A stretch of DNA of 64,000 nucleotides, taken from positions 577,377 to 641,376 of the forward strand of contig JAHJQF010000001.1 in assembly GCA_018819405.1 (NCBI GenBank), given 5' to 3'. The notes under the pieces were generated by a model. That model saw only the letters and a program-made list of their open reading frames with translations. It did no database searches and had not been told where the DNA came from. Source of the stretch: Patescibacteria group bacterium (lineage in GTDB: Bacteria > Patescibacteriota > Patescibacteriia > UBA1558 > GWA2-36-10). This document shows positions 1,545 to 32,900 of the stretch, piece after piece. Within the stretch, counting starts at the first letter, position 1. Every line of letters starts with the position of its first letter. The position numbers and the translations under genes are program-made.

Positions 1545-2699
1545 ATGAAAAAAAGCGATTTTGGGAGCATAATTTTTATGTTTTGCACTTTGATAATGAT
1601 TGTTCCCCGGCAGATCTTGGCTGTCGGGGACGCAGTCAAACAAATAACTGATAAAACAAAATATGTAGATCAGTATTTTGAGGTTAATCAAAATGGCCAA
1701 TTTAAATTGTATGTTTATTTAGGAGATCAAAAAATTGCTACTATAGATAATGATGATAATTATTTCAATTTGGACAACCATTTGAGCTCACATACCATTA
1801 TTACCAACCCGACGGGTCAAATAGTAGAGACAAATGATTATGATGATTATGGCAGTGTTATACACAGTGAATCATCAATAAATAATGATTATAAATTCAC
1901 TGGTAAGGAGTTTGATACAGAAACGGGCTTGCAATATTTTGGTCAGAGATATTATGATAGTGATGTTGGCAGATTTGCTAGTATTGATCCTTTGCTTATA
2001 TCTGAGATAAATCAATTTTTGTCTGATCCGCAACAGCTCAATAGCTATAGCTACAGTCGTAATAATCCAATTAGCTTAGTGGATAAGACAGGGGAAAAAG
2101 TGTCTGAGTTTCAGCCATATTATAGTAGTAGCGGGTTTTATGAATACAGGCAGGATTATGGTAAATATAGAGGTATGGAATTGGTAAGTGCTGGCGAGTA
2201 TTCGGGACAAGGTTGGCATGATTATCAATGTGTCGATTGGGTTAAAAAATTTGTGAATGACCAATATAAAGTTGAATTAGGCAGCATAGGTAACGCCAAT
2301 TTTTATAGTAAACAATCAAGTTTTAATGATTTTAATAAGAGTCACGACGGACAATATACTGTTTATAAAAATAATAGCAGTATAATGCCTCAAGAAAATG
2401 ATATTTTGACTTGGTCAGGTGGCGATTATGGACACGTAGGTATAATTGCGGAAGTAAGTTTTGATGGAAATTCTAATATAGGTTATGTTTATACATTAGA
2501 GCAGAATTATAGCGGTAAACAGGGACTATATAGTCAATCATTTGTTCGTTCATACAATGATAGTGGTCAGCCAGAATATACAGTAAATGATAGAGGTGGA
2601 TTAAAAGTTCAAGGATGGGCACGCTATAGTCAGCAGACTAGTATTCCATATAGTAATATATTATATACTCCCGCTCCGGGAAATTATATTTATGAATAG
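1545..2699 (+). CDS. mini-Rhs protein: signal/TM anchor + RHS repeat-associated core + C-terminal CHAP-domain (peptidoglycan amidase/peptidase) toxin
   Basis: N-terminal hydrophobic FGSIIFMFCTLIMIV. RHS core block DNHLSSHTIITNPTGQ...YKFTGKEFDTETGLQYFGQRYYDSDVGRFASIDP...NNPISLVDKTGE parallels the core of the 2170-aa protein downstream. The C-terminus has CHAP-like Cys (QCVDWVKKF) and His (GDYGHVGIIAEV) motifs. Confidence 0.6.
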   Translation: MKKSDFGSIIFMFCTLIMIVPRQILAVGDAVKQITDKTKYVDQYFEVNQNGQFKLYVYLGDQKIATIDNDDNYFNLDNHLSSHTIITNPTGQIVETNDYDDYGSVIHSESSINNDYKFTGKEFDTETGLQYFGQRYYDSDVGRFASIDPLLISEINQFLSDPQQLNSYSYSRNNPISLVDKTGEKVSEFQPYYSSSGFYEYRQDYGKYRGMELVSAGEYSGQGWHDYQCVDWVKKFVNDQYKVELGSIGNANFYSKQSSFNDFNKSHDGQYTVYKNNSSIMPQENDILTWSGGDYGHVGIIAEVSFDGNSNIGYVYTLEQNYSGKQGLYSQSFVRSYNDSGQPEYTVNDRGGLKVQGWARYSQQTSIPYSNILYTPAPGNYIYE

Positions 2700-3219
2700 T
2701 AAAAAAACAATATTAATTATAATTATCGTATTGGCAGCTATAATTTATTTTTATTTAAATTTTTATAAAAATAATAAAAAGCCCATTGGTTCTAATAACA
2801 TAAATGTCATAAATTTTCAGTCAGAAAATCAAGAATCTCCTGAAGGGTATAAAAAATTTGTTTCTCAAAATGAAAAATTAATCTTTTTTTATAAAAATGA
2901 TTGGGAATGCAGCGAAGTGGTTTATGATAAAAGAGTGGATTGTTATCCTATAGATAGGATCATGGAGGAATATGATTCAGGTCTAGATAAACAAATTGTA
3001 TATTATCCTGACATAAGTATTTATGACGAGAGTGATCTATGCTCTTTGGTCGTTGACCAAGAAGAATTATTAAAAGCAGAAAAGGAGCCGCTAGTATATA
3101 ATGAATATGGTGAAAATTATTATGGTCTTTTTTATAAAAAATTTAATAATTGTATGACAAAGATTATAACATTGCCCTACATTGATTCTCAAGAAAAATT
3201 AGAAGAAATAATAAGATAA
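2692..3219 (+). CDS. putative cognate immunity protein (N-terminal membrane anchor, extracytoplasmic body)
   Basis: Its start overlaps the toxin stop by 8 nt (translational coupling). TM helix ILIIIIVLAAIIYFYL. No recognisable catalytic motif. Its position immediately 3' of a CHAP-tipped toxin is typical of toxin/immunity pairs. Confidence 0.45.
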   Translation: MNSKKTILIIIIVLAAIIYFYLNFYKNNKKPIGSNNINVINFQSENQESPEGYKKFVSQNEKLIFFYKNDWECSEVVYDKRVDCYPIDRIMEEYDSGLDKQIVYYPDISIYDESDLCSLVVDQEELLKAEKEPLVYNEYGENYYGLFYKKFNNCMTKIITLPYIDSQEKLEEIIR

Positions 3220-3263: not shown

Positions 3264-6200
3264 ATGACAAGCATGAGAAAAATTAATAAATCCAGACTAG
3301 TAATATTATTTTTGATGTTTAGTCTGGTTTTTTCTAGTGTAGCGCCAAGTTTGGCACAGGCTAGAGAAATACTCACTCCAGTGGAAGTAGTGCCAGTAGA
3401 AGATTCAAAAGAAACAGGTATTCCTGTGGTGGAGATTTTGCCTTTGCCAGTAGAGGAATATCCTATTAATGATAAGCCTGTAGATATTGAGCCAATTATT
3501 GATGAGCCGGTTTTGTCACCAGAAGAGCGACTGGAAACACTTTTAGAAGATCCGCCAGCCGATATAACTTATTTGGATAAAGATGAGAAAAAACTGGCTA
3601 ATAAGAAATTAAATATAGATGTTGATAATAATACAGGTGCTTTAATTTATAATTATCCTATTCAAATTCCTTCAGGCCGTAATAATTTTCAGACAGATAT
3701 CAGTTTAACTTATAATAGCCAAGATAAAGAGACACATAATTTATTTGGTTTAGGATGGTCGGTAAACATTCCCAGTATAGAGGTAAGCACTAAACGGGGC
3801 GTTTATTATATGTATAGTAATTACGATTATATCTCATCTATGAGTGGTGAGTTGGTGCCGGTGGGCGCTGTCACTCCGTATGGTAATTATGGCGCTCGGG
3901 TTGAAAACGGCGACTATTTACAATATGAATTTTCTAGTATTACTAATGCTTGGACAGCGACCGATAAACAGGGGATAGTTTATAAATTTGGATCCAGCTT
4001 ATCTAGTCGTCAGGATAACCCTGAAGGACCGAGTATGATATATAAATGGATGCTAGAAGAGGTAAGAGATACAAATGACAATTATATTCGCTATGAATAT
4101 TATAAGGATCAGGGGCAGATTTATCCAGCCAAGATATTTTATACAGGGCACGGTAGCACCGATGGGATTTTCGAAATAGATTTTATCAGAGAGTCTCGTC
4201 TAGATGATTTGGAATCTTATGATAGTAGGTTTTTGGTCAAGAATAATTATCGTATTTCTGAAATACAAATAAAAGTGAATGGCTCTTGGGTCAAAAAATA
4301 TAATTTTAATTATACAGTTGGGGAAAATGGGTCTTTATCAATTTTGGACAACATTGTGGAAAGTGGTAGAGATGAAACAAGTGGACAAGTGATAACATTA
4401 CCCAGTGATGATATGAGTTATAGCCAGGATTTAGAAAGTTGGCAAGGTGGAATAGATTGGAATTTTCCAGTTGGTTTTATTAGTGACAATGGCTATCAGT
4501 CTTTTGATCTGGGCGTACGCATGGCTGATATCAATGGCGATGGATTGACCGATATAGTCAAAGGTTATAGAGATATAAAAGAAATTTATATTAATCATTA
4601 CCCCGATTGGAGTACTAGTACCACTTATTCATTGCCAGATTCTTTTATTTCGGGGGACAATTTTGATGATGGTTTGAGATTGGCCGATGTGAATGGGGAT
4701 AATTTAGTGGACTTGATAAAAGCTGTATATCTTCAGGACGAAGTTAGAGAAATCAGAGCGGTCTATATCAATAATGGTACAAACTGGGTTTTGGATCCTT
4801 CTTGGATTTTTCCTTTGAATTTTGTCAGGCATGATGATTCGGGTGCGGGTATAAGAAGTTTTGATTTGGGTACGCGTATGGCCGATATCAATGGTGACGG
4901 TTTGGTTGATGTGGTATTGGGTTCAAATATAGAAACAAACAAAATTTATATTAATAATGGACATGGTTGGGATTTGGAAACAAATTATACTTTACCTACT
5001 TATTTTGTAGATTCGGATCAGGACGCGGGCACTCGTTTTATGGATGTTAATAGTGATGGTTTGATAGACATTGTCAGAGGAGTGAATGCTTATGGTGCAG
5101 GAGGTGGAAATCAACATAATGAAGTTTATATTAATAATGGGCATGGTTGGGAACTGAATTTAAATTATAGTCTGCCCACTTATTTTGTAAATTTTGATGG
5201 TAGTTGGTATACAGATTATGGTACTAGATTATCAGATATCAATGGGGATGGTTTGATTGACATTCTTCGTGATATATATCCTGATACTTCCGAGGTTTAT
5301 ATTAATACGGGTCAAGGTTGGCATTTAAATAATAATTATTACATATTGAGTCATTTTTTAGGAGGGTCATTTATGATAGACCAAGGGGTTAGACTTTTTG
5401 ATATCAATGGTGACGGGCAAGATGATTTTATAAGAGCTAAAGAGGCTTATCCCAGATATGTTCATGTAAGTTTAGCAAATAAAGAAAATTTAGAAACAGT
5501 TAATAATTCTCGTGGCAGTCAAATTAATTTGGAATATCAGTCAGCTACTCAATATATAGACAGCCCAGACAATCTACCTAATCCCGACTTACCATTTAAT
5601 ATAGAGACAGTCAAAAATATTGTTATAGACGATGGTTTGGGAGGTATTGCCACTACTACCTATAGCTATAGTGGGGGAGACTACTATTATGCTGATCCAT
5701 ATGATAAAAAGTTTGCTGGCTTTGCAGAAGTAGAAAAAACAATTGGTAATCAGAAAACCACCACTTACTATCACCAAGGTAATGTTAGTGATTCTAGTCA
5801 AGGAGAATATCAAGATAGCTACTATAAGATTGGTAAGCCATATCGCCAAGAAATATATGATAATAATACCAATGGATTATTGAATCAGAATATTTACAAA
5901 TGGGAAGAAACCGACTTAGGGCATAATAATAAATTTGTATATAATTCTCAGAAGGCGTCTACTGATTTTACGCAAAGCATTCAATCAACAGCTGTGCAAA
6001 ATGAATATGATTTTAGCACGGGAAATTTACTTACTGAGCATAGTTTGGGTCAAGTGCAGGTAGATACTGCAACTGGTGAAATTTTGGATCAAGTAATTGG
6101 CGATGAAAAAGACACAAATTATGATTACGCCCAAAATACAACCAAACATATTTTAGCAGCTCCAAAAACTAAAATTATATCGAACACTTCTGATAGTAAG

Positions 6201-9200
6201 GAACAAAATCTATACTATGATAATTTACCATTAGGTCAAATAGAAAAAGTCAATTTGACTAAAGAGGACTATATAGAACAAGGCGTAGAAATAAATAGAA
6301 ATTTTAACAGTTATGGCTTGGTGTCTGAAGAAATTAGTCCAGAGGGTGATTCTACTGCTATTGTTTATGATAGCTTAAATCTTTACCCATCAGAAATTAC
6401 CAACGTCTTTAATCAAACTACCTATACGGAATACAATTTGCTTAATGGGCAACTTGCCACCTCCACTGCACCTAATGGAATGCTGACGATTAATAGTTTT
6501 GACGCTTTTGGTCGGCTGGTAGAGGTAAAAATTTCGGACCCAGATAATCCCACTACAACATTTATTAAACAAGAAATTGAATACCAAGATCCTTTTGTAT
6601 TTTTTAGATATAGTGACGATACAGGCTGGTTGTCTCCAACACAAACCGGAAAATACTATAATCAATTTTATAATCCAAGTAATGCTTATGCTAGTGACGA
6701 TATTTATACTACAGCCAGAGATTTTGGTAATGGTGGTTCATCAAGATTTCAATCATACGAAGGATTTAATATAAATCTTCCAGCTGCCTCTGAAATAATT
6801 GGCTTTGAAGTAATGAGTGAACATTTAGTAGATAATACTACCGATGTTGATGAATCTATAAGGTACTATTCTGCTAGTAATGGGGTTTGGTCAGATCCCC
6901 GATTTTTATCAGTTTCTACTATTGATCATGTAGATACAGTGGGAGGTTCCGATGATATTTGGGCATTAAACCCCGTAAGCTCTGATTTTATTAATGATAA
7001 TTTTTCAGTAAATTATTCTGGTTCTCGGCTTGATGGTGGGGATACTACTTGGTTTTTAGATGATATAAAAATTAAGGTTTATTATGGTGTAAATACTGAG
7101 ATAGGCTACAAAGAAACCAAAGACTATTTTGATGCCACTAGCTACATCATTTCTCGTGAATACTACGATGGCCTATATAGAGTAGTGCAAAAGAAATCTC
7201 AAACTGCTACTGCCAATCAGTATGCTACAGTAGATATCAGCTATGATTCTCAGGGTAGAGTAGATAGGCAGTCATTGCCATATATTACTTCTACTTTGGA
7301 ATATACAACAGCAAATCTTAGTCAACCAGCCAAGACCTATACCTATGATGCCTTAGATAGAGTATTGTCAGAAGCTACTCCAACTGGCGTGACCAGTTAT
7401 GAATATGATGGCTTCAAGACTACTATCACTGATCCAAACGGCAATATCAAAGAGCTAACCAAAGACGCCTACGGCAATTTGGTGGAAGTCAAAGAGCATA
7501 ATGATTCTAATATATATACCACTAGTTATGACTATACTTTGACCAACAAATTGGAAAAAATCACTGACAGTCAGGGTAATATTAGAAATTTCCACTACGA
7601 CGCCTTAGACAATCTAGACTGGCAGGATATGGTGCATTTATCATCAGTAGCCGATCCTGAGAAAATACAGTACACTCATGACAAAAATGGCAATGTGCTG
7701 ACTGAGACTAGCTTCAAGGGAGACGCTATTTCCTATGAGTATGATAGTTTAAATAGAGTGTTGTATGAAAAATTAGATAATAGTCCAGTTATTAGTTATG
7801 CCTACGATCAAAATGGTGACATTGGTCAGCTGTCTTTTGTAGATTATGGTGGAGGTAATTCCAAGGCCTATGACTATGATATACTAGGACGACTTACCAC
7901 AGCTACCACAACTATTGAAAATGAAGTCTTTGTCATGAAATATGACTACAATTTAAATGGTGACATCAAAGAAATACAATATCCAAATGCTTGGAAAGTA
8001 GCTTATAGTTTTGATTCCATTGGCCAAGTAAATGGTGTGTCTCTTGATAAAGGTCAGGGTCCAATGAGTATAGTAAATAATATTGTTTACAACCAAAATG
8101 GCCAGATGACTCATCTGGAGCGCGCCAATGGCGTAGTTAGTGATTATACTTATGATCCTCAGCAAAATTTCCGTTTAACTGATTTGATTAGCACTCAAGG
8201 TGCTACAACTTTGCAAGACATATCATATACTTATGACAATATCGGTAATATCACAAATATCACTGACAGCTCTGACACTGACTTGGCCAAGAGCGTGGAT
8301 TATGAATACGATGACTTCTACAGACTGGCATCGAGTACAGTCAGCTATGTCACTCATCCGGCTGACAATTATTCACGAGAGTATCAGTATGATCAGGTAG
8401 GCAATATGACCTACAACTCAGAACTAGGTACAATGAATTATGCCTTTGACAATCCACACCAGTTGTCCAGCTATGGTAGTCGCAATTTTAGTTATGACGA
8501 CGCTGGTAATATGTATTTAAATGGTGGTATTAGCAAATTTTCTTGGGACTGGAGAAATAGACTCAAAAACAGCTATGACATTGCTACCACCAAAAATAGC
8601 TATTATCAATATGACCACAACAATCAGCGCTTCTTGAAATACACTGAAGATTATGTATTTATTCCTCCAGATTTGGAAGATCCACCAATTGTGGGAATGA
8701 TGTCTTTATCTATGGACACTAGTGGAGGTACTTATGAACTCAGACGTGTCAAAGAAGATAAGTATGTAGATAAGTATTTTGAAAAAGACTTGTCTGATAA
8801 TGAAAAAAGCCACCTATTCCTAGGTAGTACCAGAGTGGCTAGTTTAAAAAATAATGATAATCCATATTATTATATATCTGATCATCTAAGCTCCAATAAT
8901 ATTATTACTGACAATTCGGGCAATACCCTTGAATTGAGTGATTATGAGCCTTATGGTAAAATAAACTATGAAACAGGTTCTTCAGAAAACAACTTCAAAT
9001 TTACCGGCAAGGAAATTGATGAAGAAAATGCCTTGCAATACTTTGGGGCGAGGTATATGGATAACCAGACTGGACGATTTACGACGGTGGATCCGGCTAC
9101 TCTTATACTTCACGATGGTCAGAAGTTGAAAGAGATTACCAGAGGTGATCTAGAGAGATTGTTGGCTAATCCGCAGAACCTTAATAGCTATGCATATGCG

Positions 9201-9776
9201 TTGAATAATCCAGTGATAATGAAGGATGATACTGGTGAGTTTGCATTTTTGGCTGTAGTCGCCGTTGCTTGGATTGCTGCTGAAGTAGGTTTTAGTGCGT
9301 GGGATGCTTATGATGCTGGTAATGCGTGGTTTGGTGAGGATACTAGTTCAAAAGAAAAGACATCATCTGGTGGATTCCTACTAGTAGGGTTGGCATTACC
9401 TGGTGGTGGGTATGGGCACATTGATGAAGGTGTTGATGTATTAAAAACGGTCGATAAAACAATTGGCAAATCAATTGATAACGCTGTAAATAAAATTGGT
9501 AATACAGTGTCAGATCATCTTACTAAAATGGATTATGCAGGCTTTATAAGAGATCTGAGTAAGGCACCAGTTTGGAGCAATAATTTAGGCAGGAATTTTG
9601 ACCATTATGATGAAGTTATGTCCGCCTATAAAGGTTTGCAAAATAATGTATCAAAGCTTACAAGATATTTAGATAATTATAATTTAGATAAGAAAACAGT
9701 CGACAGCGTTAACAAAGCTATTGATACAGCTAAAAGTCACATAGACAGAATAGATAATATATTAAAATCACATTAG
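3264..9776 (+). CDS. secreted giant Rhs/Tc-toxin-like protein: Sec signal + SpvB/TcB N-terminal domain + FG-GAP-like repeats + YD/RHS repeats + RHS core + unrecognised C-terminal tip
   Basis: Signal peptide ending ...VAPSLAQA. SpvB-N-like ISLTYNSQDKETHNLFGLGWSVNIPSIEV. Six or more D(I/V)NGDGL.D(I/V/L) repeats. Many YDxxGRL/YDxLxR YD repeats. RHS core DHLSSNNIITDNSG...KFTGKEIDEENALQYFGARYMDNQTGRFTTVDP...NNPVIMKDDTGE. After the core come about 178 aa with no recognisable toxin motif. Confidence 0.85.
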   Translation: MTSMRKINKSRLVILFLMFSLVFSSVAPSLAQAREILTPVEVVPVEDSKETGIPVVEILPLPVEEYPINDKPVDIEPIIDEPVLSPEERLETLLEDPPADITYLDKDEKKLANKKLNIDVDNNTGALIYNYPIQIPSGRNNFQTDISLTYNSQDKETHNLFGLGWSVNIPSIEVSTKRGVYYMYSNYDYISSMSGELVPVGAVTPYGNYGARVENGDYLQYEFSSITNAWTATDKQGIVYKFGSSLSSRQDNPEGPSMIYKWMLEEVRDTNDNYIRYEYYKDQGQIYPAKIFYTGHGSTDGIFEIDFIRESRLDDLESYDSRFLVKNNYRISEIQIKVNGSWVKKYNFNYTVGENGSLSILDNIVESGRDETSGQVITLPSDDMSYSQDLESWQGGIDWNFPVGFISDNGYQSFDLGVRMADINGDGLTDIVKGYRDIKEIYINHYPDWSTSTTYSLPDSFISGDNFDDGLRLADVNGDNLVDLIKAVYLQDEVREIRAVYINNGTNWVLDPSWIFPLNFVRHDDSGAGIRSFDLGTRMADINGDGLVDVVLGSNIETNKIYINNGHGWDLETNYTLPTYFVDSDQDAGTRFMDVNSDGLIDIVRGVNAYGAGGGNQHNEVYINNGHGWELNLNYSLPTYFVNFDGSWYTDYGTRLSDINGDGLIDILRDIYPDTSEVYINTGQGWHLNNNYYILSHFLGGSFMIDQGVRLFDINGDGQDDFIRAKEAYPRYVHVSLANKENLETVNNSRGSQINLEYQSATQYIDSPDNLPNPDLPFNIETVKNIVIDDGLGGIATTTYSYSGGDYYYADPYDKKFAGFAEVEKTIGNQKTTTYYHQGNVSDSSQGEYQDSYYKIGKPYRQEIYDNNTNGLLNQNIYKWEETDLGHNNKFVYNSQKASTDFTQSIQSTAVQNEYDFSTGNLLTEHSLGQVQVDTATGEILDQVIGDEKDTNYDYAQNTTKHILAAPKTKIISNTSDSKEQNLYYDNLPLGQIEKVNLTKEDYIEQGVEINRNFNSYGLVSEEISPEGDSTAIVYDSLNLYPSEITNVFNQTTYTEYNLLNGQLATSTAPNGMLTINSFDAFGRLVEVKISDPDNPTTTFIKQEIEYQDPFVFFRYSDDTGWLSPTQTGKYYNQFYNPSNAYASDDIYTTARDFGNGGSSRFQSYEGFNINLPAASEIIGFEVMSEHLVDNTTDVDESIRYYSASNGVWSDPRFLSVSTIDHVDTVGGSDDIWALNPVSSDFINDNFSVNYSGSRLDGGDTTWFLDDIKIKVYYGVNTEIGYKETKDYFDATSYIISREYYDGLYRVVQKKSQTATANQYATVDISYDSQGRVDRQSLPYITSTLEYTTANLSQPAKTYTYDALDRVLSEATPTGVTSYEYDGFKTTITDPNGNIKELTKDAYGNLVEVKEHNDSNIYTTSYDYTLTNKLEKITDSQGNIRNFHYDALDNLDWQDMVHLSSVADPEKIQYTHDKNGNVLTETSFKGDAISYEYDSLNRVLYEKLDNSPVISYAYDQNGDIGQLSFVDYGGGNSKAYDYDILGRLTTATTTIENEVFVMKYDYNLNGDIKEIQYPNAWKVAYSFDSIGQVNGVSLDKGQGPMSIVNNIVYNQNGQMTHLERANGVVSDYTYDPQQNFRLTDLISTQGATTLQDISYTYDNIGNITNITDSSDTDLAKSVDYEYDDFYRLASSTVSYVTHPADNYSREYQYDQVGNMTYNSELGTMNYAFDNPHQLSSYGSRNFSYDDAGNMYLNGGISKFSWDWRNRLKNSYDIATTKNSYYQYDHNNQRFLKYTEDYVFIPPDLEDPPIVGMMSLSMDTSGGTYELRRVKEDKYVDKYFEKDLSDNEKSHLFLGSTRVASLKNNDNPYYYISDHLSSNNIITDNSGNTLELSDYEPYGKINYETGSSENNFKFTGKEIDEENALQYFGARYMDNQTGRFTTVDPATLILHDGQKLKEITRGDLERLLANPQNLNSYAYALNNPVIMKDDTGEFAFLAVVAVAWIAAEVGFSAWDAYDAGNAWFGEDTSSKEKTSSGGFLLVGLALPGGGYGHIDEGVDVLKTVDKTIGKSIDNAVNKIGNTVSDHLTKMDYAGFIRDLSKAPVWSNNLGRNFDHYDEVMSAYKGLQNNVSKLTRYLDNYNLDKKTVDSVNKAIDTAKSHIDRIDNILKSH
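4500..5440 (+). repeat. FG-GAP/VCBS-like calcium-binding repeats (protein level) inside the giant toxin gene
   Basis: Recurring DINGDGLTDIV, DVNGDNLVDLI, DINGDGLVDVV, DVNSDGLIDIV, DINGDGLIDIL, DINGDGQDDFI spaced about 50 aa apart. Confidence 0.6.
7200..8900 (+). repeat. YD/RHS repeat region (protein level) inside the giant toxin gene
   Basis: Repeated YDxxGR(L/V) units: SYDSQGRVDRQ, TYDALDRVLSE, EYDSLNRVLYE, DYDILGRLTTA, EYDDFYRLASS, YQYDQVGNMTY. Confidence 0.65.
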
Positions 9777-9777
9777 T

Positions 9778-10221
9778 ATGATAGAAAATTTAGAAAAGTC
9801 ACTAAATGAGCTAGATGGCTCTATGGACGCTAGTGATCCCAATGATTCTCTTGTTAAAAAGGTAGAAGATATTAGGAAAAAGAGGTTAAAAGATTTAAGT
9901 GTGGATGATTTGGCATTATTGTTAAGGCAGCAGATTAGTTTAGGTTTTGTGGTACCGTTATCTTTAAGCAAATTAAATGAGAATATACTCATTGAGACTG
10001 AAGACACCGGATTTCGTCTACTATCAACTTTATTAAAAGTTGAAAAGGATTTTTGGTCTAGCAATGATGAGTTATATAATCAAACTGCAGATTTAATAAA
10101 TAGTAAGATGGATGAAATTATAAATCCAAAAATGGATAATCCAGTAGAATTAGATAGCTATATATCTGATGAGCTACCAGAGATTTTGAAACTATATCAG
10201 AGTTTTAAAGATTTAATATAA
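9778..10221 (+). CDS. putative immunity protein for the C-terminal tip of the giant toxin (small acidic cytoplasmic protein)
   Basis: Starts 2 nt after the toxin stop. 147 aa, acidic, no signal peptide. Position and coupling typical of Rhs immunity genes. Confidence 0.4.
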   Translation: MIENLEKSLNELDGSMDASDPNDSLVKKVEDIRKKRLKDLSVDDLALLLRQQISLGFVVPLSLSKLNENILIETEDTGFRLLSTLLKVEKDFWSSNDELYNQTADLINSKMDEIINPKMDNPVELDSYISDELPEILKLYQSFKDLI

Positions 10222-10266
10222 TTTATTTCACTGGTGATTTTTTAAGCCACCGGTGAAATTACACTT

Positions 10267-11073
10267 ATGACAGAATTTTTATTAAAATGGCAAACTCTTA
10301 TTGGAGCTGCACTTGGTCCCTTTCTTTTGGGGCTCGGTGCTTGGCTTAAGGGCGTAATGAGTAAGAAAGAAGAGCGTAAGGAGCATCTACGGCGAATAGA
10401 AATTAGTATAACACGAAGTTTAGATGATACATATAAAACACGCCAAAAACTACAAGATTTTGTTTCTAGATTAAGAATTCTGGTTAATCAAATAAGAGCC
10501 ATAACAGATAAGCACCATTTTTCTCTTGAGACCACAAATTATCCAGCTATAAGAGATGTCTATCGTGACATAGAAGCACCAAATTTTAAGATAAAAAGTT
10601 ATTACTTACATAATAAACTTTTATGGACAGATTCTGGCATTAAAGAGACAAATGAGGCCGTAGCGGGTCTTAAAAATGATTTTGCAGATTTACTAAGAAA
10701 GAACGAACTACATATAGCTTTGATAAGGCAAAATCAAAATCTAAATTCGGATCAACAGAGAGAAGACTATGCCTATAATCTGCAGGGATTTGCTAATTCC
10801 ATAGATGAATTTATAAATAAATTTATAAAACACGGTATAGAAATCATGACGCAAGTCAAGATATATAATGACCATTTGCGTAAAAGGAGTGGAAAATGGT
10901 TTTTATGGAAATGTGAAGGAATTAATTTTAGATATTTTCGTAGTAAAGTTAAACAGAAAGAATTTTCCAGAAATCTTAATTCACTAGAGCGTATTGATAA
11001 GATCATAGAGAAAGAAGTTAAATCAGCTATACAAGACGCAGAAAACAGAGCTGCTGAATTATCACGGAAATAA
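10267..11073 (+). CDS. hypothetical membrane-anchored helical protein (possible orphan immunity/accessory gene of toxin locus)
   Basis: N-terminal TM LIGAALGPFLLGLGAWL. The remainder is predicted helical/charged. No recognisable catalytic motif. Confidence 0.3.
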   Translation: MTEFLLKWQTLIGAALGPFLLGLGAWLKGVMSKKEERKEHLRRIEISITRSLDDTYKTRQKLQDFVSRLRILVNQIRAITDKHHFSLETTNYPAIRDVYRDIEAPNFKIKSYYLHNKLLWTDSGIKETNEAVAGLKNDFADLLRKNELHIALIRQNQNLNSDQQREDYAYNLQGFANSIDEFINKFIKHGIEIMTQVKIYNDHLRKRSGKWFLWKCEGINFRYFRSKVKQKEFSRNLNSLERIDKIIEKEVKSAIQDAENRAAELSRK

Positions 11074-11321: not shown

Positions 11322-11627
11322 ATGATAGATTTAAGATTTTATACAATTATAGTACGAAAGGATAAGGTTAATGACAAGTTTATGTTTTTATTTAATACTT
11401 TTAATGGGCCGAAAAATGAGGATGATTACTTTTATGTTTTTTATACTATGGCAGAAAGTATTTTGATGGAAATTAAAAAGGAATTAAAGGTTAAGGCAAA
11501 TTTGAAAGGGATAGATAACGATGGAAAATGGCAAGATTATGTTATAGTTGGTTCTATGCAAGGTATATTAGAAGGAAAGTGTGATTGGATTAAGATAGTT
11601 GATAATAAGGTGGAGTATATTGGATAA
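11322..11627 (+). CDS. hypothetical small protein (possible orphan immunity protein)
   Basis: 101-aa ORF with no recognisable motif, located at the distal end of the toxin neighbourhood. Confidence 0.25.
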   Translation: MIDLRFYTIIVRKDKVNDKFMFLFNTFNGPKNEDDYFYVFYTMAESILMEIKKELKVKANLKGIDNDGKWQDYVIVGSMQGILEGKCDWIKIVDNKVEYIG

Positions 11628-11754
11628 AATAATCTCCGAGCCCTAGAAAAATCCTCAGAATTTGATCGCTGATAGTTGTGTATGCATGCTTTTTGCGGAG
11701 ACATTTTCCTGCTATTTGACTGGACAAAAAGAGGTAACAATTAAATAAATGTGA

Positions 11755-11791
11755 CCTCGGAGGTTAATTAACCTCCGAGGTTGTTTCTTTT
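11755..11791 (+). terminator. intrinsic terminator-like perfect 26-bp palindrome + T-tract
   Basis: CCTCGGAGGTTAATTAACCTCCGAGG followed by TTGTTTCTTTT. Confidence 0.5.
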
Positions 11792-11855: not shown

Positions 11856-12248
11856 ATGAAAACTAGCCATTCAATAGTCTTTTTTGTAATTATCCTCTTA
11901 GTAGGATTTTCTATATTTTTGTTTGTAGATCACAAAGAAAAAAACAAACCAGATATAGTCAGATATAAAGTGGGCTGTGATAGCGACAAGATAGAGGCTT
12001 CTATCTACGGACTTAGTGGTAATACCAGTCGTATTGGAGCAATGATAAAGACAAAAGAACAGCCTATTTCGCAAGAAAACAAAGACAAATTGAGCGACTT
12101 GGGTGTATTTTTGGATGAGGCTAGCTCTATTTTTGATTATGTCAGAGTAGAAATACCGACTGAAAAACTTTGTGATTTAGCTCAGCTGGATTTTGTCGTA
12201 TCAATTTTTAATCCAGAAACAAAAGAAGATACTAATTTGTTACAATAA
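11856..12248 (+). CDS. hypothetical membrane-anchored/secreted small protein
   Basis: N-terminal hydrophobic IVFFVIILLVGFSIFLFV. Its stop is 1 nt before the pgk start. Confidence 0.35.
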   Translation: MKTSHSIVFFVIILLVGFSIFLFVDHKEKNKPDIVRYKVGCDSDKIEASIYGLSGNTSRIGAMIKTKEQPISQENKDKLSDLGVFLDEASSIFDYVRVEIPTEKLCDLAQLDFVVSIFNPETKEDTNLLQ

Positions 12249-14710: not shown

Positions 14711-16270
14711 ATGTCTAATATACAAAAAAAAGCAAAGACCTTAGCCCTTGTTATTTTGGATGGTTGGGGTTTGTGGGGAGAAGAAAAGGGCAATGCTATA
14801 GCGCAAGCTGATACTCCGGTTATGGCAAAATTGTACAAAAAATATCCCAATATTCAGATTCAGGCTTCAGAAAAATATGTAGGCTTGCCTGACGGTCAAC
14901 CAGGAAATTCTGAGGCGGGGCACATGAATATTGGCGCGGGACGGGTGATAGAGCAGGATGCAGTGACAATATCACGCTCTATAAATAATGGTACTTTTTT
15001 TAAAAATCCAGCTTTTTTGCAAGCTGCTAGCCATGCGGAAAAACACAAATCAGATATACATCTGATAGGCCTACTTTCCAACGGCACCAGTCCTCATTCC
15101 CATGATGATCACATATTATCTCTCTTGAGTTTTTTTATTTCTAAGACAAAACAAAATATTTATTTACACCTTTTTACTGATGGTCGTGACAGTCCTCCTT
15201 ATTCGGCTCTCAAAATATTGGCTCAGTATAATACTGTATTCAACAGTGATCGGGTAAAAATTGCCTCAGTGATGGGTAGGTTTTATGCGATGGACAGAAA
15301 AAAAGCTTGGGATAGAACCCGTAAAGCTTATGAGGCTATAGTTATAGGTAAAGGATATAAAGCTAAGAGCGCTGTCGAAGCTGTCAATCAAGCCTACAAT
15401 AGAGGAGAGAGCGATGAATTTATATTGCCGACAGTTATTAGTAAAAATAAAAAACCTCTTGGGCCAATAAATGATAATGATAGCGTTGTATTTTTTAATC
15501 TGCGTTCTGATAGAGCTAGGCAGTTGACCAAAGCTTTTGTACAAAAAGACTTTGAAAAGAAAAACGGAGGCACTTTCAAGCGCCAAGTAGTGCCCAAAAA
15601 TCTTATTTTTGTAGCTTTGACCGACTTTGGTCCTGATTTGGGTGGGGTGCTCACTGCTTATCCAGGTATTGATATACCAGATACTTTGCCGATAGCTCTT
15701 AAAGATGTCAGACAACTTTATATAGCGGAAACAGAAAAATATGCTCATGTTACATATTTTATAAACGGTGGTTATGATCATCCTATAGCTGGAGAGGATA
15801 GGATTGATATTCCTTCCAAAGATGTGCTTTCTTATGATAAAAAGCCAGAAATGAGTACCAAGGAAATAACTGATAAAGTAATACAATGTCTAAAAAATGA
15901 TAAATATGATTTTTTCTGTATCAATTTTGCAGCGCCTGATATGGTTGGCCATACTGGCAATCTCAAAGCGGGTATCAAAGCAGTGGAGGCAGTAGATAAA
16001 CATTTGGGTAGAATAGTGGATGAATTTTTGAAATTCAGAGGGACAGTAATAGTTACGGCCGATCATGGAAATGTAGAGGAAATGATAAATTTAAAGACAC
16101 AGGAGATTGATACCGAACACTCCATAAATCCAGTCCCTTTTATAATTGTTTCAGATAAAAAATATAAATTGAAAAAAACCGGCCGTCTTTCCCATATTGC
16201 ACCGACTATTTTGGATATCATGGGGATAGATAAACCAATATTAATGAAAGACAATAGTTTAATAAAGTAA
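14711..16270 (+). CDS. gpmI: 2,3-bisphosphoglycerate-independent phosphoglycerate mutase (iPGM), copy 1
   Basis: LVILDGWG N-terminal signature, HTGN metal-binding motif, TADHGN. 519 aa. Confidence 0.9.
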   Translation: MSNIQKKAKTLALVILDGWGLWGEEKGNAIAQADTPVMAKLYKKYPNIQIQASEKYVGLPDGQPGNSEAGHMNIGAGRVIEQDAVTISRSINNGTFFKNPAFLQAASHAEKHKSDIHLIGLLSNGTSPHSHDDHILSLLSFFISKTKQNIYLHLFTDGRDSPPYSALKILAQYNTVFNSDRVKIASVMGRFYAMDRKKAWDRTRKAYEAIVIGKGYKAKSAVEAVNQAYNRGESDEFILPTVISKNKKPLGPINDNDSVVFFNLRSDRARQLTKAFVQKDFEKKNGGTFKRQVVPKNLIFVALTDFGPDLGGVLTAYPGIDIPDTLPIALKDVRQLYIAETEKYAHVTYFINGGYDHPIAGEDRIDIPSKDVLSYDKKPEMSTKEITDKVIQCLKNDKYDFFCINFAAPDMVGHTGNLKAGIKAVEAVDKHLGRIVDEFLKFRGTVIVTADHGNVEEMINLKTQEIDTEHSINPVPFIIVSDKKYKLKKTGRLSHIAPTILDIMGIDKPILMKDNSLIK

Positions 16271-16282
16271 ATTTCTAACGGG

Positions 16283-17860
16283 ATGAACAGACCAAAACCA
16301 GTGGTATTAATTATATTAGATGGATTCGGTATTGCTCCACCGTCTCGAGCCAATGCAATTTCTTTGGCCAAGACGCCCAATCTTGATAAATATTCTTCCA
16401 ATTATCCGGTCATGCCGGTGGCTGCTTCAGGTGAGGCAGTTGGTTTGTCTTGGGGAGAAATGGGCAATTCCCAAGTGGGTCATTTATCATTGGGTTCAGG
16501 TGTTATCCCATATCAAAATTTGCCTAGGATTTCCAAGTCAATTATTGATGGTGATTTTTTACAAAACGAAGCTTTTTTGAAAGTTTGTGATCATGTCAAA
16601 AAAAATAACAGCGCCCTTCATCTTATTGGTTTGCTTAGCTCTGGAGGTGTGCATAGCTATAATGAACACCTTTATGCTTTGATAGATTTGGCCAAAGAAC
16701 AAAAAGTAGAGCGGGTTTATGTGCATGCTTTTTTAGATGGTCGCGATACACCTTATAATAGTGCTTTAAATTTTGTTACTAAACTGGAAGAAAGATTAAA
16801 AAAAGTAGGTTTGGGGGCTATTGCTACACTTAGTGGTCGTTTTTGGGCAATGGATAGAGACAATCGTTGGGACAGGACGGAAAAAGCCTGGCGAGCCTTG
16901 GTAGACGGCGTGTCTGATGAAAAATTTGAAGATCCCCTAGTGGCTATAGAAAAATCCTATGAAAAAAAAGTTTATGATGAAGAGTTTGTTCCAGTGGTGA
17001 TTGTCGATGACATGGGCAAACCACGAGGCACCATCAAAGACAAGGATGGGGTAATATTTTTTAATTTTAGATCAGATCGTGCTAGACAACTGACCAAGGC
17101 TTTGGTTTTGCCTGGTTTTGAAAAATTCAAAAGAGACTATTTCAAAAATTTGATGATGATTACTATGGCTGAATATGAAAAAGATTTGCCGGTTTTGGTG
17201 GCTTTTCCTCCTTTGGTCATAGAGACGCCTTTAGCTAGAATTATTTCTGAAGCCGGATTGCGTCAGCTTCATATTGCCGAAACTGAAAAATATGCTCATG
17301 TTACTTATTTTTTTAATGGTGGTCAAGAAAAAATATATGAAGGCGAAGACAGAGTACTGGTGCCATCACCTCAGGTTACTTCGTATGACCAAAAACCAGC
17401 TATGAGTGCCAGAGATTTGACAGCCAAGGTTACTCAGGCCATCAAAGAAGGCACTTATGATTTTATAGTGCTCAATTATGCTAATCCTGATATGATTGGC
17501 CATACTGGCAATATCCAGGCTACTATTGAAGCTATAGAAATATTAGATCAGTTGATTGGGGAAGCAGTAGAAACTACTTTGTCGTATGAGGGTGTAGTTT
17601 TAATAACCTCTGATCATGGTAATGCCGAGAGTCTTTATGACCTGCAGACCGGTGAGATAAACAAAGAACATTCCAACAATCCGGTGCCTTTATTTATTAT
17701 TGGAAAAGATTTTGCTGGTAAGGCAGTTTTGTCCGGTGTAGCCGGTACTGATCTTAGTCATGTCACGCCAGTGGGAGTGTTGTCTGATGTAGCACCGACA
17801 ATACTCAAGATTATGGGACTCAAAAAACCGCCCGAAATGACGGGCAGCTCTTTGATATAA
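16283..17860 (+). CDS. gpmI: 2,3-bisphosphoglycerate-independent phosphoglycerate mutase (iPGM), tandem paralog copy 2
   Basis: VVLIILDGFG, HTGN, TSDHGN. 525 aa. Clearly homologous to the upstream gene but diverged. Confidence 0.85.
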   Translation: MNRPKPVVLIILDGFGIAPPSRANAISLAKTPNLDKYSSNYPVMPVAASGEAVGLSWGEMGNSQVGHLSLGSGVIPYQNLPRISKSIIDGDFLQNEAFLKVCDHVKKNNSALHLIGLLSSGGVHSYNEHLYALIDLAKEQKVERVYVHAFLDGRDTPYNSALNFVTKLEERLKKVGLGAIATLSGRFWAMDRDNRWDRTEKAWRALVDGVSDEKFEDPLVAIEKSYEKKVYDEEFVPVVIVDDMGKPRGTIKDKDGVIFFNFRSDRARQLTKALVLPGFEKFKRDYFKNLMMITMAEYEKDLPVLVAFPPLVIETPLARIISEAGLRQLHIAETEKYAHVTYFFNGGQEKIYEGEDRVLVPSPQVTSYDQKPAMSARDLTAKVTQAIKEGTYDFIVLNYANPDMIGHTGNIQATIEAIEILDQLIGEAVETTLSYEGVVLITSDHGNAESLYDLQTGEINKEHSNNPVPLFIIGKDFAGKAVLSGVAGTDLSHVTPVGVLSDVAPTILKIMGLKKPPEMTGSSLI

Positions 17861-32630: not shown

Positions 32631-32707
32631 GGGCATGTAGCTCAGTTGGTTAGAGCACTACATTCACATTGTAGGGGTCGAAGGTTCGAGTCCCTCCATG
32701 CCCACCA
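32631..32707 (+). tRNA. tRNA-Val (anticodon CAC), CCA encoded
   Basis: Acceptor GGGCATG/CATGCCC, D-arm GCTC-AGTTGGTTA-GAGC, anticodon stem CTACA/TGTAG with loop TTCACAT, T-loop TTCGAGT with one A-C mismatch in the T-stem. Confidence 0.7.
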
Positions 32708-32756
32708 TTTTACTCTATTTAGCTTTATAAATTTTTATTATTATATGCTTATGTTA

Positions 32757-32787
32757 GAAAACAACTTGCTCAAGTTGTTTTTGTTAA
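32757..32787 (+). terminator. intrinsic terminator after the tRNA pair
   Basis: AACAACTTGCTCAAGTTGTTTTTGTT. Confidence 0.55.
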
Positions 32788-32900
32788 ATTTGAGATATTA
32801 GCTATGCCTTGATAATATATTAGTAGAATAAAAATAATCAAAATATTTAATAATATAATTGTCCAAATAGATATTTTTTTGTTATAATTATAATACTAAT

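Follow-up and report, generated by a model that had tools for sequence, protein, structure and literature searches.

A probable Sec-exported RHS toxin of a Patescibacteria group bacterium with a predicted Ntox28 tRNase tip, a hydrophobic pre-toxin module and a co-translated CdiI_3-type immunity gene

The window, a stretch of 64,000 nucleotides (nt) from a Patescibacteria group bacterium (contig JAHJQF010000001.1, positions 577,377 to 641,376), harbors a large gene for an RHS polymorphic toxin which is directly followed by a small gene for an acidic protein. The original prediction had interpreted the C-terminal tip of the RHS protein and the small open reading frame (ORF) behind it as a toxin and its immunity protein, and both were followed up here by homology searches, structural models and a comparison with related loci. 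The main features are listed below by their position in the window; amino acids (aa) are counted along the tip or along the full-length protein, and the putative active-site residues are given with their counterparts in CdiA-CT(UPEC536), the toxin of Escherichia coli 536.

3264..9776, forward strand: RHS polymorphic toxin gene, an intact ORF of 2170 aa (ORF and translation)
8943..9239, forward strand: Rhs-associated core domain, aa ~1894-1991 (TIGR03696 Rhs_assc_core, E=8e-17)
9240..9773, forward strand: 178-aa tip after DDTGE (frame check; stop codon TAG at 9774-9776)
9240..9416, forward strand: hydrophobic pre-toxin module, tip aa 1-59, protein aa 1993-2051, FAFLAVVAVAWIAAEVGFSAWDAYDAGNAWFGEDTSSKEKTSSGGFLLVGLALPGGGYG
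9423..9773, forward strand: Ntox28-family toxin domain, tip aa ~62-178, protein aa ~2054-2170 (Pfam and PDB homology)
9531-9533, forward strand: putative active-site residue D2090, aligned to D155
9597-9599, forward strand: putative active-site position F2112, aligned to W176
9603-9605, forward strand: putative active-site residue H2114, aligned to H178
9612-9614, forward strand: putative active-site residue E2117, aligned to E181
9778..10221, forward strand: immunity gene, 147 aa, with its ATG 2 nt after the toxin stop codon

The 2170-aa protein is composed, in this order, of a signal peptide, an SpvB/TcB-like region, FG-GAP repeats, RHS/YD repeats, the Rhs-associated core and the 178-aa tip. 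It qualifies as an RHS/YD polymorphic toxin, since it has RHS repeats and an Rhs-associated core, behind which the tips of related proteins vary. Pfam matches were obtained for SpvB (E=1.3e-15), FG-GAP_3 (2.8e-14), RHS_repeat (1.1e-17) and DUF6443, and the core domain scored 61.5 bits against TIGR03696, the cut-off of which is 32.5. The Sec-type signal peptide, read off the sequence, comprises aa 1-33 (MTSMRKINKSRLVILFLMFSLVFSSVAPSLAQA). By its domain composition, the scaffold resembles that of WapA or a fused TcB-TcC cocoon. The core terminates in NNPVIMKDDTGE, in which DDTGE occupies aa 1988-1992 (nt 9225..9239). The corresponding columns in an alignment of 80 homologous sequences, which is also the basis of the conservation values given below for the module, contain D (93%), P (88%), a variable residue and G (99%), and DDTGE is accordingly regarded as a probable local variant of the DPxG[L] autoproteolysis and demarcation motif. 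The 178 residues behind DDTGE were found as originally quoted, and so was the acidic 147-aa ORF 2 nt downstream of the stop codon; the start of the tip had been correctly recognized in the protein and was shifted by the frame check from nt 9241 to nt 9240. Neither ORF arose by chance, and both represent real genes; for the immunity gene, this follows from 67-80% identical homologues that stand directly 3' of tip homologues in four other loci. Within the RHS region, a stretch at aa ~1130-1290 (FFRYSDDTGWLSPTQTGKYYNQ...DDIKIKVYYG) is unlike YD repeats and without a Pfam match; it may be a domain inserted on the shell.

An exhaustive phmmer search of 1.84 billion representatives with the tip as query yielded 219 proteins at E<=0.001, and the listed matches were re-aligned locally to the tip. 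Among these, 66 proteins matched the N-terminal part only (tip aa ~1-65, hereafter N-only), 71 matched the C-terminal part only (tip aa ~70-178, C-only) and 9-13 matched both. Due to this split, the tip can be divided into two independent modules, which the alignments delimit as a hydrophobic pre-toxin module (aa 1-59) and an Ntox28 domain (aa ~62-178). This two-module structure surfaced through the exhaustive search of representatives and not through the word-indexed homologue search, which returned two proteins with the tip as query and 25 with a 60-sequence alignment.

The C-terminal ~115 aa, in which no nuclease motif had been recognized before, match the nuclease family Ntox28 (Pfam PF15605) with E=4.9e-5 over profile positions 19-112 of 113. 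Similarly, a phmmer search of all PDB sequences with the tip identified 5J5V_B, 5J43_F and 8ZYC_B ('tRNA nuclease CdiA') with E=1.6e-7, and a profile of the tip and its homologues matched the same chains with E=6.4e-20 in the nuclease domain (chain residues 123-222). These PDB entries contain CdiA-CT of uropathogenic E. coli 536, along with CysK and CdiI. A protein 91-92% identical to the tip (P0001) has a precomputed PF15605 assignment, and 62 of the 71 C-only homologues match Ntox28 at E<=0.001. The family has been defined as all-alpha with a [DN]HxxE motif (Zhang et al. 2012, PMC3482391), and both the motif of the toxin domain and its AlphaFold2 (AF2) model, which is all-alpha with a predicted local distance difference test score (pLDDT) of 80-94, agree with this definition. 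The H and E of the [DN]HxxE signature are invariant in the 71 C-only homologues, and the positions of the string DHLT..D..G..D..P are conserved to at least 90% in this set. CdiA-CT(UPEC536) is a tRNA anticodon-loop nuclease with the active-site residues D155, W176, H178 and E181, and it bears a GxGI tail for CysK (PMC9086364). The active site was mapped by the phmmer alignment to the PDB chain together with the residue list in PMC9086364, and D, H and E turned out to be identical to those of the prototype. We infer from this homology that the toxin domain is likely to be a tRNA anticodon nuclease as well.

The tip ends in ...RIDNILKSH and, thus, lacks the GxGI tail. As Tox28(Rlac) of Ruminococcus lactaris is CysK-independent (Johnson et al. 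2016, as summarised in PMC9086364), the missing GxGI tail suggests that the toxin in the window would similarly be independent of CysK. Tails of the type P[YF]GGI(x) occur in 25 of 80 relatives and those of the type xSH in 10, the window tip included. The former, observed in Ntox28 homologues P0004-P0151 with 0-1 additional residue, resemble the CysK-binding GxGI tail and are usually one residue longer. The latter can be specified as [IL][IL]xSH-COOH, which is the exact C-terminus of the 10 of 80 relatives, with a conserved terminal Ser-His.

The product of the downstream gene (NCBI KKH39_03020, from a Patescibacteria group bacterium, on a 1.04-Mb contig) is acidic, with an isoelectric point of 4.35 and 30 D+E versus 17 K+R; neither a signal peptide nor a transmembrane (TM) segment was identified in it, the maximum Kyte-Doolittle 19-residue mean being 1.53. 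It matches Pfam CdiI_3 (PF18616) with E=3.6e-14 and 52.9 bits (cut-off 28) over profile positions 12-93 of 95. All 5 homologues carry PF18616, one of them is annotated at NCBI as a contact-dependent growth inhibition system immunity protein, and the immunity protein is 67-80% identical across five sequences with many invariant positions. Structural modeling by AF2 from a 5-sequence alignment resulted in a pLDDT of 76, and the best PDB matches of this model in Foldseek were 5j5v_C and 5j5v_F, the CdiI of UPEC536, with probability 1.00, TM-scores of 0.56/0.66 and 0.52/0.59 and 19-20% identity, the E-values being 0.03-0.06 only. The protein is therefore assigned, by profile and model, to the CdiI_3 immunity type and is predicted to be cytosolic and translationally coupled to the toxin. 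The CdiI chains matched by the model stem from the same complex as the toxin chain matched by the tip; the alignments and models thus show that the homology to CdiA-CT/CdiI(UPEC536) extends to the pair of toxin and immunity protein as a whole. The proposal of a new toxin/immunity family is, thus, not upheld, as the immunity protein belongs to CdiI_3 and is structurally closest to CdiI of UPEC536. Divergent Ntox28-like RHS tips with the hydrophobic module were also observed in L012 (4001..5493) and on two JGI contigs. In the BLASTP alignments obtained they are 22-29% identical, and the gene behind them codes for a HEAT_2-repeat protein of 184-191 aa and not for CdiI_3, which points either to a second immunity family for the Ntox28 fold or to CdiI_3 itself being a diverged HEAT-like repeat.

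The linkage of toxin and immunity gene is retained in related loci. The immunity gene adjoins a tip homologue in the window and in L001, L002, L003, L004 and L006. In L001, a 91-92% identical tip is followed by the immunity gene. L003 and L004 as well as L002 and L006, which are syntenic Patescibacteria contigs, contain RHS fragments that are truncated; their tip is 77-79% identical and precedes an immunity gene of 77-80% identity. In L002 and L006, these fragments are surrounded by recombinases and other orphan toxin fragments, and the same PGK-enolase-iPGM genes (phosphoglycerate kinase, enolase and cofactor-independent phosphoglycerate mutase) lie downstream of them. A different arrangement is found in L005, where the RHS end retains the hydrophobic module and bears an unrelated toxin with its own small Cys-rich ORF, while an orphan CdiI_3 gene (73% identical) follows the replaced tip. 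The identities to the window change between zones as follows.

L005 versus window: RHS core 64%, hydrophobic module 69%, toxin domain 25%
L002 versus window: RHS core 57%, hydrophobic module 52%, toxin domain 88%

These comparisons show, at the level of aligned sequences, an exchange unit composed of the toxin domain behind PGGGY and the immunity gene, so that PGGGY is the swap point of the toxin cassettes and the module belongs to the constant side of this RHS class. Ntox28 is also located on PT-TG, LXG, PT-HINT, extracellular contractile injection system (eCIS) and DUF6531 scaffolds among the C-only homologues; PT-TG precedes it in 5 of the 71, and a PT-TG fragment stands behind the RHS core in L002. 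The related loci hence bear out a polymorphic-toxin tip behind an RHS core with a coupled acidic immunity protein, the pair being mobile as a cassette, and the occurrence of Ntox28 on other scaffolds together with the toxin swaps confirms a polymorphic-toxin cassette, albeit one of a known family. The tip does not correspond to a structural domain without toxic function, and the ORF behind it is conserved together with the tip; therefore the cassette idea of the original prediction stands, while its claims of novelty and of mechanism do not.

A small membrane protein of 123-130 aa, 39-46% identical between the loci, precedes PGK in the window (11856..12248, forward strand), in L002 (13818..14189) and in L005 (1843..2214). 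It forms the right border of a variable toxin island, the content of which differs per related Patescibacteria genome; that of L002 comprises two serine recombinases, a ThsB-TIR gene and three orphan RHS fragments.

By its distribution, the hydrophobic module is evidently not part of the toxin domain. Two hydrophobic helices had been proposed for it, and two hydrophobic stretches are indeed present. The first, at tip aa 1-21, has the length of a membrane span and reaches a Kyte-Doolittle mean of 2.04 over 19 residues; the second (aa ~44-53, GGFLLVGLAL) covers ~10-13 residues, peaks at a 19-residue mean of 0.99 and does not reach that length. The module begins 4-5 residues behind the D-P-x-G motif and can be described by the motif string WxxxE...DxY...EK...GxxxPGGGY. 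Residues E15, D22, G55 and Y58 are invariant; Y24, G50, P54, G56 and G57 are at least 93% conserved, and W11, T29 and K40 are conserved to 82%, 86% and 89%, respectively. The N-only set is made up of 66 RHS proteins (RHS_repeat, RHS, TEN_YD-shell, SpvB, FG-GAP), and RHS scaffolds are the only carriers seen in it. The recognisable C-terminal domains behind the module comprise EndoU, colicin-E3-like 'Cytotoxic', RNase A-like and Ntox50 as well as several HNH types, GH-E, deaminases, Fic and GIY-YIG. Accordingly, the hydrophobic part, which had been taken to indicate a pore-forming payload rather than an enzyme, is a separate module that precedes EndoU, HNH, Fic and other domains.

No match to the module was obtained in Pfam or NCBIfam, and a search of the PDB with its profile gave no matches either. 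In addition, genomes were scanned on the basis of a 9-sequence alignment with the narrow pattern [AVL]G[LTF][AV]LPGGGY, and owing to this narrowness the 6 loci obtained represent a sample and not a census. The scan located the module in Patescibacteria, Komeilibacteria, Kordia (Bacteroidota), Methylomirabilota, Gemmatimonadaceae and Ignavibacteria, and in every case a different ~100-150-aa tail and then a small ORF come behind it. Three of four inspected full-length module carriers (P0008, P0148, P0149) possess signal peptides; a literal PAAR motif was present in none of the four, and no PAAR family was among the Pfam matches listed for the module-carrier set. Two known elements were considered as identities of the module. 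PT-TG (PF14449) was rejected, as there was no Pfam match at E<=1 and hhalign assigned a probability of 0.9% over 20 columns. A sortase-like LPxTG reading of LPGGGY was likewise rejected, since the Thr is absent and a hydrophobic helix that precedes the motif is the wrong order for a sorting signal. No description of a C-terminal hydrophobic pre-toxin element in Rhs proteins was found in the searchable open-access literature, which is incomplete; the unannotated pre-toxin module is the only element here that could be new.

Taken together, we consider it quite likely that the locus encodes a Sec-exported RHS toxin with an Ntox28 tRNase tip and the hydrophobic module, along with a co-translated CdiI_3 immunity protein. 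Based on the signal peptide, the RHS protein would be exported by Sec. By analogy to RHS and Tc biology, it would then undergo autoproteolysis at DDTG|E, and the cleaved fragment would be held inside the RHS shell. Release might occur at the target cell, with passage through the membrane aided by the module, which is the weakest step of this scheme. Once in the cytoplasm, the Ntox28 domain would, as its homology suggests, cut the anticodon loop of tRNA via D2090, H2114 and E2117 and thereby stop translation. The producer would be protected by cytosolic CdiI_3, which, as is the case for CdiI(UPEC536) in 5J5V, may bind over the His/Glu active site of the toxin. Several points weigh against this reading. 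The single-sequence Ntox28 score of 23.9 bits is just below the gathering cut-off of 25, and W176 of the prototype is replaced by Phe (F2112). The second segment of the module is too short for a membrane span, and the AF2 model of the module has a pLDDT below 50. Finally, the searchable literature offered no data on the activity, the cleavage or the delivery of any RHS protein from Patescibacteria.

With regard to the module, its associations tentatively point to a contribution to the passage of cytoplasm-acting toxins of Sec-exported RHS proteins across the target membrane, a role to which we would give somewhat less than an even chance. The more specific proposal, an undescribed self-contained membrane-translocation device which, once the fragment has left the shell, inserts as a helical hairpin into the cytoplasmic membrane of the target and carries the fused nuclease, deaminase or Fic domain into the cytoplasm, is rather doubtful. 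The same degree of doubt applies to the idea that the module would, by analogy, play the role of prePAAR transmembrane domains or of the entry domains of CdiA-CT. Alternatively, the module might be a structural or processing element of an RHS subclass, such as a shell anchor or plug or a spacer for autoproteolysis, which has no role in entry and is conserved through its position on the constant side of the recombination junction. This alternative, which we regard as a serious one although it also falls short of even odds, would readily explain why the module has been seen only on RHS scaffolds directly after DPxG, whereas Ntox28 also occurs on LXG, PT-TG, PT-HINT and eCIS scaffolds; it would likewise fit the short second hydrophobic stretch and the invariant E, D and Y, which in a hydrophobic context suggest a specific protein contact. 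It is less easily reconciled with three observations, all of them correlative and from small samples. Every recognisable toxin domain attached to the module acts in the cytoplasm, the peptidoglycan-directed CHAP tip encoded in the window (1545..2699) is without the module, and the carriers appear to be Sec-dependent without PAAR or an injection apparatus, so that some entry device is needed.

The remaining alternatives concern the toxin domain and the pair as such. In families of the BECR type, the substrate can shift within one fold. The Ntox28 domain might act on a substrate other than the tRNA anticodon loop, be it another RNA or DNA, given that the toxin shares ~25-30% identity with the single characterised prototype lineage and that CdiA-CT(UPEC536) and Tox28(Rlac) are the only assayed members (PMC9086364). 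We consider this improbable, as the catalytic D, H and E are conserved along with the surrounding DHLT..D..G..RD..P motif and the two assayed members, from Proteobacteria and Firmicutes, have the same activity (PMC9086364). That the pair is a decayed, non-functional relic is very unlikely: RHS loci do gather orphan fragments, and L002 holds truncated RHS fragments only, yet the 2170-aa ORF in the window is intact and has a signal peptide, its catalytic residues are preserved, and the immunity protein is conserved as detailed above (67-80% in five sequences, with many invariant positions). Pore-forming and ionophoric polymorphic toxins consist of hydrophobic or amphipathic helices without an enzymatic domain, and their immunity proteins are usually membrane-embedded. 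That the whole tip is a toxin which inserts into membranes or forms pores, in the manner of Tse5-CT or the ionophoric CdiA-CTs, with the acidic ORF as its immunity gene, is the least probable reading and hardly tenable, since, despite the helix of TM length and the second short stretch that open the tip and the existence of Rhs-borne pore-formers (Tse5, PMC10684867), two thirds of the tip are an Ntox28 nuclease domain with intact catalytic residues, the hydrophobic part recurs ahead of ~15 different enzymatic toxin families, and the immunity protein is a soluble CdiI_3 without a TM segment, of the type that neutralises a cytosolic tRNase.

Several other genes and elements surround the locus. 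The 384-aa 'CHAP protein' upstream (1545..2699, forward strand) is itself a short polymorphic toxin, with a signal peptide and, as its tip, a CHAP peptidoglycan hydrolase; its Rhs C-terminal core is 44% identical to the RHS fragments in L002 and L003, ends in ...NNPISLVDKTGE and is not followed by the hydrophobic module. Overlapping this gene, an ORF of 175 aa (2692..3219, forward strand) with an N-terminal hydrophobic segment and no family match is positioned as the putative immunity gene of the CHAP toxin. Between the CdiI_3 gene and the conserved flank stand two ORFs, one of 268 aa (10267..11073, forward strand), which has an N-terminal hydrophobic segment and is otherwise charged and helical-looking, and one of 101 aa (11322..11627, forward strand). 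Neither of the two had a match in Pfam, NCBIfam or PADLOC, and the related loci contain no counterpart of either; both may be orphan immunity genes or have no relation to the toxins. The terminator scan identified no canonical terminator directly after the immunity gene; at this position (10225..10259) a 12-bp stem with one G-U pair and an 11-nt loop is found, without a T-run. A 15-bp palindromic hairpin before the conserved 130-aa gene (11751..11784) was scored as a bidirectional terminator-like site. Farther downstream, PGK and enolase are followed by tandem paralogues of cofactor-independent phosphoglycerate mutase (14711..16270 and 16283..17860, forward strand), a duplication that is also present in L002. 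The Rfam family HPnc0260, a Helicobacter antisense RNA, matched at 32669..32797 (reverse strand) with 63.4 bits (cut-off 59), where it overlaps a tRNA gene on the opposite strand (32631..32704); the match is most likely an antisense-of-tRNA artefact.

As such, the toxin/immunity pair is an ordinary one of the known Ntox28/CdiI_3 type and differs from the prototype in its RHS carrier, the missing CysK tail and the phylum. Characterised examples of this pairing are limited to E. coli 536 and a single Ruminococcus homologue, and the window adds an RHS scaffold from Patescibacteria to them; the locus also displays textbook cassette replacement in this group. In the searchable open-access literature, which is incomplete, no description of RHS toxins in Patescibacteria (candidate phyla radiation, CPR) was found. 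Sec-exported RHS toxins have no injection machine to take them across the target membrane, and the hydrophobic module provides a concrete candidate for their way into cells. If this were true, the module could be part of how Patescibacteria episymbionts attack hosts or rivals. For annotators, PGGGY offers a demarcation motif by which new toxin domains in this RHS class can be cut out.

Among known systems, CdiA-CT/CdiI of E. coli 536 (5J5V, 5J43) is the closest, with a homologous toxin in which D, H and E are kept, a homologous immunity protein and the same order of toxin and immunity gene. Like the tip in the window, CdiA-CT has a two-part C-terminus in which a non-catalytic part is followed by the nuclease. 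In contrast, the toxin in the window resides on a Sec-exported RHS shell and not on a CdiB/CdiA filament and has no VENN motif, its tip is without the GxGI tail and has Phe in place of W176, the part preceding the nuclease is an unrelated hydrophobic module and not a cytoplasm-entry domain, and the host belongs to the Patescibacteria. Tox28(Rlac) of Ruminococcus lactaris is an Ntox28 toxin from outside the Proteobacteria and CysK-independent (PMC9086364). By its description, it is the likelier functional model for the tip. As far as we are aware, the scaffold of Tox28(Rlac) is not an RHS protein.

WapA of Bacillus subtilis shares with the RHS protein a signal peptide, an RHS/YD shell, a downstream immunity gene and a C-terminal tRNase, which is a predicted one in the window. 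It is Sec-dependent and cell-wall-associated, and mediates contact-dependent competition without a type VI secretion system (T6SS) in a cell that has no outer membrane. At its N-terminus WapA has wall-binding repeats, where the protein in the window has SpvB/TcB-like and FG-GAP domains. We know of no Ntox28 domain and no hydrophobic module among the tips of WapA. The TcB-TcC cocoon, which consists of SpvB, a beta-propeller, RHS and an autoproteolytic core, has the same domain order as the single polypeptide in the window, with a hypervariable fragment after the core motif. Compared with Tc toxins, the cargo is a nuclease of the antibacterial type with an immunity gene and not a eukaryote-directed enzyme; a TcA-like translocator was not seen beside the gene, and no search was aimed at one.

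For the module itself, PT-TG (PF14449) provides a parallel as a pre-toxin element between carrier and diverse nucleases. There is a faint local resemblance (DPxASxxEK versus TGxELSxxER), but PT-TG, unlike the module, is not hydrophobic. The prePAAR and N-terminal transmembrane domains of T6SS Rhs and Tse6-type effectors and the entry domains of CdiA-CT are non-catalytic and have been proposed to take toxins across the inner membrane (PMC9825190). No sequence similarity of the module to any of these was found. The transmembrane domains of T6SS effectors are located at the effector N-terminus, outside the shell, and need Eag chaperones, whereas the module is part of the cleaved C-terminal fragment, directly before the toxin. 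What they have in common are hydrophobic or membrane-interacting segments attached to toxins that act in the cytoplasm, and the analogy proposed here is, thus, a functional one.

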